From positions 59,568-123,567 of the forward strand of contig CAWBLF010000001.1 of assembly GCA_963789635.1 (NCBI GenBank): a DNA stretch of 64,000 nt, in the 5' to 3' direction. Below the pieces are notes generated by a model. The model did not search any database, was not told the DNA's origin, and saw only the letters and a list, made by a program, of their open reading frames with translations. Below are positions 41,178-61,801 of this stretch, piece after piece (the stretch's first letter is position 1; each line of letters begins with the position of its first letter). Position numbers and translations under genes: made by a program. This DNA is from an uncultured bacterium (GTDB lineage: Bacteria > Patescibacteriota > Minisyncoccia > Phycocordibacterales > Zambryskibacteraceae).

Positions 41178-43591
41178 ATGCCCACACAAGAAATAAAGAA
41201 AAAAAATTCAGCAAACAATAAACGCAGGCTTGTGTTGCTCGACACTCACGCTATTTTGCATAGGGCTTACCACGCCCTGCCGGAGTTTTCTTCGTCAAAA
41301 GGCGAACCTACTGGGGCATTGTATGGGCTTGTCGCTATGCTCATAAAAATTATCGGCGAGCTCAAACCGGATTATGTGGTCGCTTGCTATGACCTGCCTG
41401 GCCCCACCTATCGTCATGAAGCGTATGAAGGTTACAAAGGCACCCGCAAAGAAATTGAAAGTGATCTGGTGGCTCAGATCAAGCGCTCAAACGACGTATT
41501 TAATTCCTTTCACATCCCCATATATTCATCCCCCGGTTTTGAAGCGGATGATATTCTCGGCACCATTGTGGAAGAGACAAAAAATGACAAAGACTTGGAA
41601 GTTGTGATTGCATCCGGTGATATGGACACATTGCAACTTGTAAATGGCGAGAAAGTGAAAGTTTACACTTTGAAAAAAGGGATTAACGACACGATTTTGT
41701 ACAACGAAAAAAAAGTGCAAGAAAGATTTGGTTTTCCGGCAAAACTTTTGCCGGACTACAAAGGGCTTCGAGGTGATCCATCGGACAACATCATCGGCAT
41801 AAAAGGGATCGGAGAAAAAACAGCCACTACTCTCATAACCACTTTTGGGGCCATTGAGAATATGTATAAACTTTTAAAGAAAGACAGTGAACCTTTCAAA
41901 AAAGCTGGAATTACACCGCGGATAATTGAGCTTTTGAAAAACAACGAGGAGGAAGCCATCTTTTCCAAAATGTTGGCGACCATTCGTCGTGATGCACCAA
42001 TCTCTTTTTCTTTGGGGAAGCCGTGGAGAGAGTCATTCTCTCAAACTGATGCCGAGGCCCTGTTTTTGGATTTGGATTTTCGCACCCTAAGTCAGCGTTT
42101 GTCTTCCGTCATGAATCTTGAAACCAAAAGTAGTTCGCCGGTTCAAGCGTCACTGACCGCGACACTAGACAGAATCGATAGACGGGCAAGAGCTGGAAGA
42201 GACGACTTTGGCATTGTGGGTGGTTGACTCCAATTTTACCAACCCTACCCAAGATGATGTTTTGCGTTTTGCAAAGACGAACGACTTTAAAAAAGCCAAA
42301 GAAATTATTTTTGCAGAGCTCAAAAAAAGAGGTGGGGAATTTGTTTATTATGAAATTGAAAAGCCCCTGATTCCGATTGTGAGACAAATGGAAGAGACGG
42401 GAGTGAAGATAGATAAAATTTATCTGAAGGAACTTTCGCGTAATTATCACAAAAAGCTCGATGCTTTGGAGAAAAAAATTTGGGCGTTGGCTGGAGAAGA
42501 ATTCAATATCAATTCCCCCAAACAAGTGGGGAATATCCTTTTCGACAAACTGCAGCTCACGGCCAAAAATATGAAGAAAACAGCAGGCGGGGAGAAATCG
42601 ACTCGGGAAAGCGAGCTCGAAAAACTAAAAGACCTGCACCCGATTATTCCGCTCATTCTTGAATACCGCGAGTTTCAAAAACTTCTCTCCACATATATAG
42701 ATAATATTCCGGATATGCTGGACAAAAACGATCGTCTGCATACCAGCTCTGCGCCAGGCGGGCACCACTACCGGCAGAATGTCTTCTACAAATCCGAATC
42801 TTCAAAATATTCCAATTAAGACCGAACTCGGAAGAAATATTCGAAATGCTTTCGTGGCCGAAGAAGGATACTCGTTTGTGTCATTTGATTATTCACAAAT
42901 TGAATTGAGAGTGGCGGCCATTCTTTCCGACGATGAAAAACTTTTGGAAATTTTTCGCAACGGAGAGGATGTCCACACCGCGGTGGCGTCGCAAGTCTTC
43001 GGCGTGCCGTTTGATAAAGTCGATAAGGAAATGCGTCGCAAGGCCAAAGTCATCAATTTTGGGATTCTTTACGGCATGGGCGTCAACGCTCTGAAGCAAA
43101 ACTTGGGAGGAACCCGCGAAGAAGCCCAGATTTTTTACAACGAATACTTTGCCAAATTTGAAGGAATTTCCAAATACCTGGACAGAATTAGAGCCGAAGC
43201 TACTCGAAAAGGGTACACAGAAACCCTTTTTGGAAGGCGTCGTTATGTGGAAGGTATTCAATCAAAGATTCCATACATTCGCTCAGCCGCAGAAAGGATG
43301 GCAATCAATGCGCCAATTCAAGGCACGGCCACCGGTGATATTATGAAACTTGCCATGAAAGCTATCGCCCAATTTATTAAAGATAAAAAACTTGGTAAAG
43401 ATGTAAGAATGCTTTTGCAAATTCATGACGAGTTGGTATTTGAAATTAAAAAAGAAAAAGTTAATACCGTCATGCCAGAAATAAAAAAACTAATGGAGAA
43501 TGTCCTTACGCCGGAACAATCCAAAGGAGTGGTATTGGTTGCCAACGGTGAAGCAGGCAAGAATTGGGGAGACGGAGTGGAAATTAACTGA
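41178..43591 (+). CDS. polA: DNA polymerase I (5'-3' exonuclease + family A polymerase; no recognisable 3'-5' exonuclease motifs), split into three ORFs by two +1 frame changes
   Basis: ORF 41178..42227: LLDTHAILHRAYHA...YKGTR...GFEADDILGT...GIKGIGEKTA. ORF 42208..42819: ...YYEIEKPLIPIVRQME.TGVKID...LILEYREFQKLLSTYID...RLHTS. ORF 42779..43591: (GTTTGR)MSSTNPNLQNIPIK...FDYSQIELRV...KVINFGILYGMG...QIHDELVFE. Confidence 0.9.
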
Positions 43592-44345: not shown

Positions 44346-44420
44346 GTAAATATAGACAAAACAAAATATTTTCGCTATAGTTTTGTTCATGTTTTGAGAG
44401 TTTTCCTTTTTTCTCAATTC

Positions 44421-44623
44421 CAATTAAATATGCGCCCATAGCTGTTTTGGTAGGTATACAGGGAATGTGGTAAGTTTGAAAAGTAAATAAATTATGCGCC
44501 CATAGCTGTTTTGGTAGGTATACAGGGAATGTGGTAAGTTTGAAAAGTAAATAAATTATGCGCCCATAGCTGTTTTGGTAGGTATACAGGGAATGTGGTA
44601 AGTTTGAAAAGTAAATAAATTAT
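44421..44623 (+). repeat. Tandem 64-bp repeat (3 units) made of the tRNA-Lys 5' end fused to a conserved core, directly abutting the tRNA
   Basis: Units start at 44432, 44496 and 44560 (period 64), and the true tRNA starts at 44624. The unit is GCGCCCATAGCT+GTTTTGGTAGGTATAC+agggaatgtggtaagtttgaaaagtaaataaattat. Confidence 0.9.
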
Positions 44624-44696
44624 GCGCCCATAGCTCAGCTGGTAGAGCAGATCCCTCTTAAGGATAAGGTCGTAGGTTCGATCCCTACTGGGCGCA
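44624..44696 (+). tRNA. tRNA-Lys (anticodon CTT)
   Basis: Hand-folded cloverleaf: acceptor GCGCCCA/TGGGCGC, D arm GCTC-AGCTGGTA-GAGC, anticodon loop CT-CTT-AA, T arm GTAGG-TTCGATC-CCTAC. Confidence 0.9.
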
Positions 44697-45029
44697 CAAA
44701 ATACAGAAACATCCCGCCTGCGCGGGATTTTCTGATTCTGTGCGAGGCGCAGACATGTTTTGTAGTAACAAAACAGTCGAGCCGGGGTCGCGAGATTTTT
44801 CTGCAGAAAAATACTTGTGACCACAAATACAGAAACATCCCGCCTGCGCGGGATTTTCTGATTCTGTGCGAGGCGCAGACATGTTTTGTAGTAACAAAAC
44901 AGTCGAGCCGGGTGAGAGCGAACACTCGGAGCTTTGCAAGACCTTGAGCGTTTTGTATTCAAAATGCGAAAGGTGTACAGATCCTGTAAGGATCGCGGAA
45001 ATTTTCAGTAGAAAATTATCTGTGACCAC
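44695..45029 (+). repeat. Two tandem copies of the tRNA-trailer composite element (H1-H2-H3-GTGACCAC); the second copy carries an ~85-nt insertion
   Basis: Copy 1 spans 44695-44824 and copy 2 spans 44822-45029. The first ~90 nt are identical (period 126). See findings for the hairpin structure. Confidence 0.85.
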
Positions 45030-45444: not shown

Positions 45445-45461
45445 AGGAAGATAATAACATA

Positions 45462-45548
45462 ACGAATAATGAATATCGAATAAGGAATATTGGGAGAAGC
45501 CAAATCGTTATTTGCTTTCATCCCCCGCATTCTTTATTCTTGATTCAA
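45462..45548. repeat. GAATA/TATTC-rich palindromic intergenic element (copy R3)
   Basis: ACGAATAATGAATATCGAAT (45462-45481) is the reverse complement of ATTCGATATTCATTATTCGT. A degenerate forward copy, ATTCTTTATTCTTGATTCAA, lies at 45529-45548. The element sits between divergent doxX-like and trmH-like genes. Confidence 0.55.
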
Positions 45549-48365: not shown

Positions 48366-48940
48366 TAATTTTTATTTCCAAGAATTTTTAGGGAATGTTT
48401 TACTCTTTCGCCGGTGTCGGTGATTTCTTTGGGCACTTTTTTCATGGCCTCGCGGGCTTCTCTTTGGGAGTATCCCAGAGCGGTCAGCGCCTCGATGACA
48501 TCACTATCATCGGTAATTGCCGTCTCGTCGCCCGCTACCGCCGGTCCCAATTTACCAGAAAGTTCCAAAACAATCTTTTCCGCATTCTTTTTGCTTAGGC
48601 CAGAAACTTTGGTGAGCTCGGTCGTATCCTCGGTAAATACGGCGTTGCGGAGCATTTTGATACTGGCCACATTCAGGATTGCCAAAGCTGTTTTCGGACC
48701 AATGCCGGAAATCGTAATAAGTAGTTCAAAAAAATCCAAGGTTTCTCGATCGGCAAAGCCATAAAGGTCTAGCGCCGTTTCTCGGACAGCCAAATAAGTC
48801 CAAAGAGAAGCAGTTTGTCCTTCGTGAAGAGTCGAAAGGAGTTGGCCGGTGGCGCTTATTTTGTAGCCCACGCCGTGAACATCGAGCACAACCCCGTGCG
48901 TGTTGACTGATATAACCGTGCCTGTAAGGTGAGAAATCAT
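48365..48940 (-). CDS. ruvA: Holliday junction DNA helicase RuvA
   Basis: MISHLTGTV...VLDVHGVGYKI, HhH motifs LLITISGIGPKTALAIL and TKVSGLSKKNAEKIVLEL, and the C-terminal domain EALTALGYSQREA. Confidence 0.9.
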   Translation of the reverse strand: MISHLTGTVISVNTHGVVLDVHGVGYKISATGQLLSTLHEGQTASLWTYLAVRETALDLYGFADRETLDFFELLITISGIGPKTALAILNVASIKMLRNAVFTEDTTELTKVSGLSKKNAEKIVLELSGKLGPAVAGDETAITDDSDVIEALTALGYSQREAREAMKKVPKEITDTGERVKHSLKILGNKN

Positions 48941-48994
48941 GATACGAATTATAGCGAATAAGGACGAATGATACGAATGACTCCGGGCCTAATA

Positions 48995-49054
48995 CCGAAT
49001 AATGAATATCGAATGAATCCAATCGTTATTCGTAATTCCTAATTCACTATTCGT
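48995..49054. repeat. GAATA/TATTC-rich palindromic intergenic element (copy R4)
   Basis: CCGAATAATGAATATCGAAT (48995-49014) faces ATTCCTAATTCACTATTCGT (49035-49054), between divergent ruvA and rpsT. Confidence 0.6.
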
Positions 49055-49098
49055 TCTAAAACTTGCGTTTGAGCAAGGTTTCGGGTAGTATCTCCTTC

Positions 49099-49431: not shown

Positions 49432-49572
49432 GTGGTCACGAATAATTTTTGTTTCGTCAAACAAAAATTTTCTCGACCCCGGCTCACCATAGCCAATTGC
49501 TATTGGCTATATGTTTGCGCCTAGCACAGAATCAGAAAATCCCGCGCAGGCGGGATGTTTCTGTATTCTGTG
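49432..49572 (-). repeat. tRNA-trailer composite element copy (3' of tRNA-Arg-GCG)
   Basis: On the tRNA-sense strand: H1 identical to the 44.7-kb copies, H2 = ATAGCCAAT-agca-ATTGGCTAT, GAGCCGGGGTCG, H3 = AATTTTTGTTT-gacg-AAACAAAAATT, and the end ...TTCGTGACCAC. Confidence 0.85.
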
Positions 49573-59406: not shown

Positions 59407-59497
59407 TGGTCAGTGGTTTCGTCTACAGACGAAACATTACTTAGCTCGGCACAGAATCAGAAAATCCCGCGCAGGCGGGATGTTTCTGTATTCTGTG
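59407..59497 (-). repeat. Short tRNA-trailer element copy (3' of tRNA-Arg-TCT)
   Basis: On the tRNA-sense strand: canonical H1, CCGAGCTAAGTAAT, the hairpin GTTTCGTC-tgta-GACGAAAC, and the end CACTGACCAC. Confidence 0.8.
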
Positions 59498-59705: not shown

Positions 59706-59763
59706 ATTATCTACCTACTTATCATATCAGTGCTTTATAATACGCATAACAATCGTGCATTTG

Positions 59764-59783
59764 TACCAGTTCCGCCACGTGCC
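59764..59783 (-). repeat. Orphan 20-nt copy of the tRNA-Leu(CAG) 5' end (tRNA nt 2-21)
   Basis: TACCAGTTCCGCCACGTGCC at 59764-59783 is identical to 59685-59704 inside the tRNA. The copy lies 58 nt upstream of the tRNA in the tRNA orientation. Confidence 0.85.
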
Positions 59784-59794
59784 AAAATGTGTTT

Positions 59795-59930
59795 GTGGTC
59801 ACAGATAATTTCTTTGCCGTCGCAAAGAAATTTACGCGACCCCGCCTCGCGGTTTTGCGTACTCGCAAAACATCGCTGTGGCTCCCACAAAAGCACAAAA
59901 TCTGCCGAAGGGAGGTCTTTGTGTCTTTTG
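59795..59930 (-). repeat. tRNA-trailer composite element copy (3' of tRNA-Val)
   Basis: On the tRNA-sense strand: a divergent H1 (CACAAAAGACACAAAG...CTTTTGTG), H2 = GTTTTGCG-agta-CGCAAAAC, GAGGCGGGGTCGCG, H3 = AATTTCTTTGC-gacg-GCAAAGAAATT, and ...TCTGTGACCAC. Confidence 0.8.
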
Positions 59931-60003
59931 TGGGCGGTAGAGGATTCGAACCCCTGACATCTTCAGTGTAAATGAAGCGCTCTACCAACTGAGCTAACCG
60001 CCC
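59931..60003 (-). tRNA. tRNA-Val (anticodon TAC)
   Basis: Acceptor GGGCGGT/ACCGCCC, D arm GCTC-AGTTGGTA-GAGC, anticodon arm CTTCA-TT-TAC-AC-TGAAG, T arm AGGGG-TTCGAAT-CCTCT. Confidence 0.9.
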
Positions 60004-60251
60004 GTTACCTGCGTATACCTACCAAAACAGCTAATCGCCCGCTTACGTATACCTACCAAAACAGCTAATCGCCCGCTTACGTATACCTACCAAAACAGCT
60101 AACCAAACACAACACCTGCGTATACCTACCAAAACAGCTAACCAAACACAACACCTACGTATACCTACCAAAACAGCTAACCAAACACAACACCTGCGTA
60201 TACCTACCAAAACAGCTAACCGCCCATCACTCACGTATACCTACCAAAACA
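60004..60251 (-). repeat. Array of 7 copies of the 22-nt unit TTAGCTGTTTTGGTAGGTATAC (tRNA-sense strand) with short recurring spacers, directly 5' of tRNA-Val
   Basis: Plus-strand copies of GTATACCTACCAAAACAGCTAA lie at 60013, 60047, 60081, 60120, 60159, 60198 and 60235 (the last truncated). Spacers: tcgcccgcttac (x2), ccaaacacaacacct[g/a]c (x3) and ccgcccatcactcac. Confidence 0.9.
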
Positions 60252-60326
60252 AACGACTATGTCTGTACAACTTACAACAAAACTACTCTTAATGCCAGAT
60301 TATCAAATTTACTATATATTAGACGC

Positions 60327-61115
60327 ATGTCTATTTTGGATGAAATAAAAATTCTTTATGAGGATGATAATATTTTGGTGATCAATAAACCGGCTGGCCT
60401 TGCCGTGCACGCTGATGGCCGGACAAAAGAAGAAACGCTTGCCGACTGGGTGCTGGCCCATTATCCGGAGATGAAAGATGTGGGGGAGCGCGCGAGGCCG
60501 AGTAACGAATTACGAATAACGAACGATGATTCAATATCCAATTCTAAATTCGAAATGCAAAATTCTAATGTTTTGCGACCGGGAATAGTTCACCGTATTG
60601 ACCGCGACACTTCCGGAGCACTTATCATGGCCAAAAGCCAAAAAGCATTTGAATTTTTGAAGTCTCAATTTAAAAATCGATCCGTCCGCAAGGAATATCA
60701 CGCTTTTGTCTATGGCAACATTGATGAAAACTTTGGCACCATAGATAAGCCGATCGGCAGAAGCAGAAGTGATTTTCGCAAATGGTCGGCAGAAACAGGA
60801 GCCCGGGGGGAACTTCGGGATGCTCTGACTTATTTTGAAGTTATTAAGCGAGGTAAAGACGCCACTTTTATACGGGTGTTGCCCAAGACCGGTCGGACGC
60901 ACCAGATACGCGTGCATTTCAAAGCAATACATCACCCAATAGTGGCCGATGCGCTCTACGCTCCAAAAAAAGATAAACTTTTGGGATTTCAAAGAGTGGC
61001 TCTTCACGCATATTCGTTGGAGTTCAAAGACTTGTCCGGCAAAACTGTCGTAGTAACCGCTCCGTATCCTGCCGATTTTTTGCACGCAATGGAAGAATTT
61101 GATAAGAAAAGCTAA
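60327..61115 (+). CDS. RluA-family pseudouridine synthase (no S4 domain) with a ~30-aa insertion before the catalytic motif
   Basis: DDNILVINKPAGLAVH, catalytic HRIDRDTSGALIMAKS, and TGRTHQIRVH. Extra segment: ERARPSNELRITNDDSISNSKFEMQNSNVL. Confidence 0.85.
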   Translation: MSILDEIKILYEDDNILVINKPAGLAVHADGRTKEETLADWVLAHYPEMKDVGERARPSNELRITNDDSISNSKFEMQNSNVLRPGIVHRIDRDTSGALIMAKSQKAFEFLKSQFKNRSVRKEYHAFVYGNIDENFGTIDKPIGRSRSDFRKWSAETGARGELRDALTYFEVIKRGKDATFIRVLPKTGRTHQIRVHFKAIHHPIVADALYAPKKDKLLGFQRVALHAYSLEFKDLSGKTVVVTAPYPADFLHAMEEFDKKS

Positions 61116-61753: not shown

Positions 61754-61801
61754 CAGAATGCAAAAACATCCCACACAAACGGGATGTTTTTGCATTCTGT
61801 G
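61752..61801 (+). repeat. H1-type trailer hairpin variant (perfect 21-bp stem) abutting tRNA-Leu(GAG)
   Basis: CACAGAATGCAAAAACATCCC-acacaaac-GGGATGTTTTTGCATTCTGTG. It shares the CACAGAAT/ATTCTGTG base and ATCCC/GGGAT top with the canonical H1, while the middle segment differs on both arms. Confidence 0.85.

Follow-up and report, generated by a model that had tools for sequence, protein, structure and literature searches.

Tandem 5′ pseudo-copies of tRNA genes with a rewritten D-arm upstream of tRNA-Val and tRNA-Lys in a member of the Patescibacteria

Results

Repeat arrays upstream of tRNA-Val and tRNA-Lys

The stretch of DNA analysed in this work (64,000 nt, hereafter the window) carries an array of short repeats directly 5′ of an intact tRNA-Val(tac) gene, itself followed by tRNA-Leu and tRNA-Arg; 3′ CCA is not encoded in any of the window's eight tRNA genes. 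On the minus strand, which is the sense of the tRNA, TTAGCTGTTTTGGTAGGTATAC units alternate with spacers of 11-16 nt and end 9 nt from tRNA-Val, with unit periods of 34, 34, 39, 39, 39 and 37 nt. TRF reported a repeat at 60007-60251 with a period of 39 and 6.6 copies, and the 21-mer TAGCTGTTTTGGTAGGTATAC gave six exact matches in the Val array and three at 44439-44587, on the tRNA-Lys side, the expected count in the window being 0 (none in 100 shuffles). The strand sequence, TRF and the 21-mer counts thus confirm the array that the initial annotation had placed at 60004-60251; its recurring spacers (one found twice, another three times), its periods of 34 and 39 nt, the 9-nt gap between the last core and tRNA-Val and the position next to the tRNA leader and promoter region were likewise correct. 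The annotation had counted seven units of 22 nt, of which six are full and the distal seventh consists of the 16-mer core only, without TTAGCT. The number seven may be inexact, since contigs of other assemblies (L010, L020, L032, L033 and L076) break inside such arrays. All seven cores of the Val array are identical and its spacers strongly divergent, which suggests constraint or homogenisation of the core, so the units may not be inert.

A site of the same build had been annotated at tRNA-Lys, and rightly so, as a three-unit array of the same architecture lies 5′ of tRNA-Lys(ctt) (Table 1). Here the 34 nt that come after each pseudo-copy repeat upstream sequence; the 64-nt unit includes the 36 nt found directly before the tRNA, and on visual comparison the 3′ part of the unit is similar to the sequence upstream of the tRNA in an array-less ortholog (L096). 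Both arrays carry the same T/G variant of the core, and all ten copies in the window are identical.

The neighbouring genes are of a housekeeping nature (PolA, HolA, DoxX, SpoU, Fpg, a Mur ligase, RuvA, RuvX, a tRNA-binding-domain protein, PilM/N, RluA and L19). No integrase, transposase, reverse transcriptase or cas gene was found within about 3 kb of the Lys array or within about 7 kb of the Val array, and Pfam searches on 20 ORFs between 41 and 64 kb returned housekeeping families only, with cas genes absent.

Table 1. Coordinates of the tRNA genes, arrays and pseudo-copies in the window.
Feature	Position	Strand	Description
Whole array 5′ of tRNA-Val(tac)	60004..60251	-	6 full pseudo-copies and 1 distal partial core
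Intact tRNA-Val(tac)	59930..60003	-	D-arm TAGCTCAGTTGGTAGAGC; CCA not encoded
Val pseudo-copy 1 (proximal)	60011..60040	-	GGGCGAT-TAGCT + GTTTTGGTAGGTATAC + GC
Val pseudo-copy 2	60045..60074	-	acceptor GGGCGAT
Val pseudo-copy 3	60079..60108	-	acceptor part GTTTGGT, 9/12 vs tRNA
Val pseudo-copy 4	60118..60147	-	GTTTGGT
Val pseudo-copy 5	60157..60186	-	GTTTGGT
Val pseudo-copy 6	60196..60225	-	GGGCGGT, 12/12 vs tRNA
Distal partial unit of Val array	60235..60250	-	16-mer GTTTTGGTAGGTATAC alone; recognisable tRNA nt 1-12 absent before 16-mer
GTTGTAAGTT block	60269..60278	-	upstream of whole Val array; common to array-less orthologous loci L092 and L093
tRNA-Leu(cag) truncated pseudo-copy	59706..59784	-	nt 2-21 and anticodon stem kept; D-stem 3′ strand rewritten
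Array 5′ of tRNA-Lys(ctt)	44425..44635	+	3.3 x 64-nt units
Lys array pseudo-copies	44432-44461, 44496-44525, 44560-44589	+	GCGCCCA-TAGCT + 16-mer + AG
Intact tRNA-Lys(ctt)	44624..44697	+	D-arm TAGCTCAGCTGGTAGAGC

Each unit is a 5′ copy of the tRNA with a rewritten D-arm

Each unit was found to be a truncated copy of the downstream tRNA in which nt 1-12 are followed by nt 26-27 (up to nt 30 at other loci), and in every unit nt 13-25 of the D-arm (CAGYTGGTAGAGC) are swapped for GTYTTGGTAGRTATAC. In alignment, TAGCT-CAG-TTGGTAG-AGC of the tRNA corresponds to TAGCT-GTT-TTGGTAG-GTATAC of the unit. The initial annotation had read the unit as nt 1-12 of tRNA-Val joined to a foreign core; nt 1-12 are indeed present, but the core is a rewritten D-arm and not foreign, since the base following every Val core in the window is G, usually as GC, which is nt 26-27 of tRNA-Val. 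The same holds in other organisms, where the two bases after the 16-mer equal the cognate nt 26 and nt 27 in 52/55 and 55/55 non-redundant loci, against 28 and 18.5 for shuffled pairings; nt 28-30 match in a subset of loci (e.g., AGATC, GCCAC, AATCG, ATTCC), and from nt 31 onward there is no match. As the replacement removes the 3′ strand of the D-stem, the pseudo-copy cannot fold as a tRNA; the unit is a truncated and non-functional copy of the 5′ part of the adjoining tRNA gene. In the proximal unit of the Val array the 9 nt between the end of the core and nt 1 of the tRNA read GCAGGTAAC. Derivation of the 16-mer from the D-arm by slippage, inversion, fusion to the T-arm or fusion to the D-arm of tRNA-Leu was considered by eye, and none of these gives GTT together with GTATAC; the stretch GGTATACGC is common to the 16-mer and the tRNA-Leu D-arm.

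The window also holds a truncated pseudo-copy of tRNA-Leu(cag), in which the anticodon CAG has become GTT and the 16-mer is absent. It is present as well in a relative (L092, 1-140, minus strand), as at least two tandem units inside which the contig ends. This pseudo-copy without the 16-mer indicates that partial 5′ duplication of tRNA genes is more general in the lineage.

Distribution of the family

We defined the family as cognate nt 1-12, GTYTTGGTAGRTATAC and cognate nt 26-27, located 8-53 nt 5′ of an intact tRNA with the TAGCTCAGYYGGTAGAGC D-arm; both arrays of the window and 72 non-redundant loci elsewhere fit this definition. The exact 21-mer was found in 22 species-representative genomes whose record titles name Parcubacteria/Paceibacterota, Saccharibacteria, Nomura-, Taylor-, Yonath- and Lloydbacteria, three being titled just "bacterium" and one Burkholderiales. 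A pattern relaxed to Y/R matched 69 metagenome stretches and gave no match in the viral contigs searched. Of the genome and metagenome stretches together, those that bear a label are nearly all Patescibacteria. The Burkholderiales record (L019; JAMPXW010000002.1, 267 kb, from a MAG of that label) shares the type of its tRNA-Lys and linker with the metagenome loci L031 and L037, and is possibly a mis-binned contig. Rfam has no family matching the pseudo-copy and recognised only the tRNA, and none of the papers in the literature searched contains the 16-mer. The Val array is the largest known member of a Patescibacteria-specific family of rewritten pseudo-copies that is undescribed in the literature searched.

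At 72/72 non-redundant loci the core is preceded by the cognate acceptor sequence and followed downstream by the intact tRNA; all loci were retrieved with the core as query, so that conservation of the core is in part a product of ascertainment and was not used as a measure of selection. The tRNAs concerned are Lys(ctt/ttt), Phe, Thr(tgt/cgt), Val(gac/tac/cac), Ala(tgc), Ile and Asn, and the D-arm TAGCTCAGYYGGTAGAGC is common to all of them. On the retrieved contigs 83 of the 88 tRNAs with this D-arm have a core at most 140 nt upstream, and three of the remaining five have recognisable variants of it (L007/L025, L065). Among some 120 tRNAs with other D-arms, only three rows, all tRNA-Leu(tag), matched the core, as judged for these three from the match rows. 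The gap between core and tRNA, 8-53 nt over its full range, is bimodal, with 8-19 nt in 16 loci and 42-53 nt in 43. Most loci have a single copy (68), with two copies in 14 and three in 2; the seven of the Val array are the largest number seen.

Comparison with relatives

The core proved to be conserved across Patescibacteria, which removes the possibility, raised by the initial annotation, that it lacks conservation in relatives; the comparison with related genomes that it had proposed has a second side, the arrays themselves being missing from the two closest relatives. Beside rluA and rplS in L092, the RluA of which is 77% identical, tRNA-Val(tac) has no pseudo-copy, and none is statistically detectable at the Val locus of L093, a 61% relative. 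In the holA-doxX interval of L095/L096 (78%) and L098 (68%) there is a tRNA-Lys(ttt) without a significant pseudo-copy. What look like relics in L093 and L096 lack significance (p = 0.37 and 0.13, respectively). With the nearest relatives found (77-78% protein identity) having clean Val and Lys loci, both arrays of the window are lineage-specific. Between the window and L095/L096 the Lys locus has been remodelled: the interval from holA to tRNA-Lys in L095/L096 (3227-3913) carries a peptide deformylase gene and Lys(ttt), and in the window (44346-44697) this gene is absent, with Lys(ctt) and the array in its place.

Between loci of the same tRNA, identity of the linker and upstream flank is 0.54-0.61, compared to 0.54-0.56 in unrelated pairs, and is thus essentially saturated; the pseudo-acceptors follow the real acceptors between such loci. 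Nucleotides 1-12 of the pseudo-copy are identical to those of the real gene (12/12) in 52 of 90 copies. Mismatches are mainly GC>AT (49, vs 12 AT>GC), the bias that DNA free of constraint should acquire in an AT-rich genome. Degeneracy is often greater in the distal copies (L001, L003, L015, L036, L050, L070, L087), and in several multi-copy loci the proximal copy is the best match to the gene. Upstream of nt 1 similarity ranges from zero up to the full length of a unit, as in the arrays; exact extension beyond nt 1 of the tRNA is 0 nt in 22/72 loci, with a median of 2. The idea that the upstream regions consist of layers of decayed pseudo-copies was dropped on account of the weak signal (best 16-mer match 8.7, vs 8.2 in shuffled linkers).

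RNA structure

Folding of array and tRNA together was no better than that of shuffled sequences (z = 0.27 for Val and 0.03 for Lys), and the minimum-energy structure retains the Val cloverleaf; in the Lys folding the identical acceptor copy is able to pair with the 3′ strand of the tRNA instead. The complement of the pseudo-acceptor occurs in the linkers of 0/72 loci. A structured or competing leader RNA was rejected on these grounds, and the leader decoy or competing structure that the initial annotation had offered is not supported; Rfam finds the tRNA only, and the arrays match none of its families.

Discussion

Comparison with known systems

The initial annotation described the array as resembling CRISPR without being one, and the latter part is borne out. 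The likeness lies in a short, perfectly conserved repeat alternating with short variable segments, with some polarity of conservation; the differences are that the repeat (22 nt) is a tRNA fragment, that the spacers (11-16 nt) recur, end in acceptor sequence and derive from the tRNA or its leader, that loci elsewhere are mostly single-copy and that cas genes are absent from the 20 ORFs between 41 and 64 kb. A CRISPR or guide-RNA array was rejected for these reasons.

In E. coli tyrT, repeat units of 178 bp lie beside the gene and each contains the 3′ end of tRNA-Tyr. As at tyrT, we observe tandem units beside a tRNA gene that hold a fragment of it and that point to duplication and unequal recombination; the tyrT units, however, are located 3′, carry an unaltered 3′ fragment and are specific to one locus, whereas the units described here are located 5′, have a uniformly rewritten D-arm and accompany many tRNA species across the phylum. 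In the att duplications made by integrases that target tRNA genes, as in the pseudo-copies, part of the tRNA is found displaced next to the complete gene, and occurrence is patchy among relatives. Integrases, however, repeat the 3′ segment and leave behind a kb-scale island that encodes the integrase; the pseudo-copies repeat the 5′ segment, lie 8-53 nt from the gene (9-36 nt in the window) and have no recombinase gene nearby. Like the tandem P1/P2 promoters of rrn operons, the arrays are duplicated modules upstream of a stable-RNA gene, and the 64-nt Lys units copy an upstream region; the short Val units, in contrast, have no recognisable promoter and include a piece of the gene. The repeats of type III toxin-antitoxin systems (ToxI-like) are similar in being tandem direct repeats of about 36 nt that are probably transcribed, but the arrays lack a downstream gene of the ToxN/AbiQ type, run into a tRNA, are outnumbered elsewhere by single-copy loci and have no excess of structure. 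The group I introns of Patescibacteria tRNAs (PMC13011429) are unrelated, as these are inserted at position 35/36.

Origin of the units

The reading that we favour, and to which we give about an even chance, is that the units are partial tandem duplications of the leader and the 5′ part of the gene, amplified by unequal recombination and probably located within the pre-tRNA leader. Of the explanations offered by the initial annotation, scars of repeated recombination come closest to it. A first copy would come from a partial duplication, in tandem, of the gene's promoter-proximal segment. With at least two copies present, unequal recombination or slippage between the direct repeats could gain or lose units, and would also keep the acceptor part matched to the live gene and be able to delete an array cleanly. 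This process would be unusually advanced in the window genome, with seven units at tRNA-Val and three at tRNA-Lys. The GTTGTAAGTT block, which may be part of the ancestral tRNA-Val promoter, is common to the window, L092 and L093 and lies upstream of the entire array, indicating that the array was inserted or expanded between block and gene. From this position the Val array is most likely transcribed as a long pre-tRNA leader and would be removed at 5′ maturation.

Some observations sit less well with this scenario. Duplication and unequal crossover alone leave an identical 16-mer in at least 11 tRNA species unexplained, and the 5 + 7 nt of homology between a fresh duplicate and the pseudo-copy of another tRNA is short for ordinary recombination. 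In many single-copy loci similarity ends at or near nt 1, as would likewise be seen if the copies derived from a transcript or from cutting at a specific site. The 16-mer is the same across tRNA species and classes of Patescibacteria and goes with one D-arm only; random decay cannot yield this, which argues for sequence-specific recognition or copying. The agent might be a factor that binds DNA or RNA and recognises the canonical D-arm as well, or templated copying that depends on homology and is anchored on TAGCT and TTGGTAG. We entertain, tentatively and with the balance still against it, that some Patescibacteria have a trans-acting system which reads the canonical D-arm in tRNA genes or their transcripts and writes or maintains the same 16-nt replacement in truncated 5′ copies of all tRNA genes with this D-arm; candidates are an activity that recombines or templates, and a regulator or nuclease together with its decoy. 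If so, this would be a new class of tRNA-gene-linked genetic element whose activity the arrays record.

The initial annotation had also proposed a promoter stack, in which the 16-mer would be a promoter-like element, each unit would add a start reading into the tRNA and copy number would tune output. Organisms with such small genomes probably have one gene per tRNA, and the idea draws on the short-gap class (16/72 loci, the Val array among them), where TATACN starts 14-17 nt before nt 1, in the same place as the TAnnnT of other tRNAs on the same contigs (peak at -15 to -11); at long-gap loci the end of the core, 42-53 nt upstream, falls just beyond the normal -35 position, and the array-less ortholog L096 has GTTTTGGAAATTTTAC, a 12/16 match to the core, 7 nt before tRNA-Lys, although this match is not significant (p = 0.13). 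The other tRNAs of these contigs have TGnTAnnnT hexamers at about -18 to -9, with TTG at about -40, so that their leaders are very short; with the -10 hexamer only about 8-14 nt before nt 1 at tRNAs with other D-arms (loci L001-L091), near-leaderless transcripts are implied. Within the core itself, however, no hexamer combines A at position 2 with T at position 6, TATAC always being followed by R, and there is no -35; the -35 position is occupied by the GC-rich acceptor copy, and no constant spacing was found that would make the core the -35 (TTGGTA or TATACA) or -10 of the tRNA promoter. A consensus promoter scan called nothing within the Val array, the units do not show the -35/-10 pairs with 16-18 nt spacing of sigma-70 tandem promoters, and no -10 at a fixed offset from the core was found in 53 loci with gaps of 25-55 nt. 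The presence of cognate nt 1-12 and nt 26-27 would be left unexplained as well, and we consider a promoter stack rather improbable. An array of binding sites is unlikely as well: a factor that reads the canonical D-arm (TAGCT...TTGGTAG) in DNA or RNA, such as a tRNA-gene regulator, a tRNA-binding enzyme or a tRNA-targeting nuclease, would find in the pseudo-copy a high-affinity regulatory or decoy site. The strict D-arm specificity would follow, as would a 16-21-mer that is near-invariant across tRNA species and classes when flanks are saturated, and seven identical Val cores amid divergent spacers; moreover, both canonical-D-arm tRNAs of the window share one variant, and both orthologous loci in relatives are without the element. 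Against it, the analysis turned up no candidate for the factor, the acceptor part drifts towards AT and distal copies become degenerate in the manner of unselected DNA, close relatives manage without the element and array RNA structure is at background level.

That the units are footprints of a mobile element or site-specific recombinase targeting the D-arm region of tRNA genes, each visit of which leaves an element end (the 16-mer) attached to a displaced piece of the 5′ part of the gene and regenerates the intact gene, would be in keeping with a 3′ boundary that is position-specific (nt 27-30) in different tRNAs, with a left boundary often at nt 1 or a few nt away, with the patchy occurrence across distant lineages and the gain and loss between relatives, and with the polarity by which the proximal copy is often the best match. 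We hold this to be quite improbable, as no element body is seen within the 8-53 nt from pseudo-copy to gene, no integrase or transposase is nearby and viral contigs gave no match; in addition, the 5′ part that is restored is the cognate one in every case, something beyond the means of a generic element, and a single crossover would not yield GTT and GTATAC on either side of a retained TTGGTAG. A mis-assembled or collapsed repeat, finally, is suggested by the several contigs of other assemblies that end inside such arrays, but the same architecture in 91 independent stretches from many studies, the unique flanks, the internally varied spacers and the second array with a different unit in the same window make an assembly artefact very improbable.

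Partial duplications of tRNA genes are known; a phylum-wide pseudo-copy that is tied to one D-arm and identically rewritten was not found in the literature searched. The pseudo-copies mark an unrecognised constraint or process on the tRNA genes of organisms with minimal genomes, and N7-TAGCT-GTYTTGGTAGRTATAC-RN is a signature for phylogenetic profiling. Assemblies can break at them, and in annotation they could give rise to false calls of tRNAs or CRISPR arrays. Should the units drive or modulate transcription, change in copy number would be a simple tuning of single-copy tRNA genes.

Other features of the window

An identical 41-nt hairpin, ACAGAAACATCCCGCCTGCGCGGGATTTTCTGATTCTGTGC, was found at 44703-44743 and 44829-44869 on the plus strand and at 49524-49564 and 59449-59489 on the minus strand, with a variant near 61760. 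It lies a few nt past the 3′ end of tRNA-Lys, tRNA-Arg(gcg) and tRNA-Arg(tct), is also present after the tRNA-Lys of L096 and looks like a shared terminator or REP-like module. A block of roughly 126 nt after tRNA-Lys is tandemly duplicated. DNA polymerase I (41178-43591, plus strand) is split over three overlapping ORFs, corresponding to the 5′-3′ exonuclease, the middle part and the polymerase domain, and is a single protein of 799 aa in L095/L096; frameshifts, a pseudogene or sequencing errors could account for the split. Degenerate heptamer repeats (CGAATAA, ATAACGA) are located at 60499-60568, 45459-45490 and 48939-49055, some of them inside rluA. RluA has a length of 262 aa in the window, compared to about 244 aa in most homologues.
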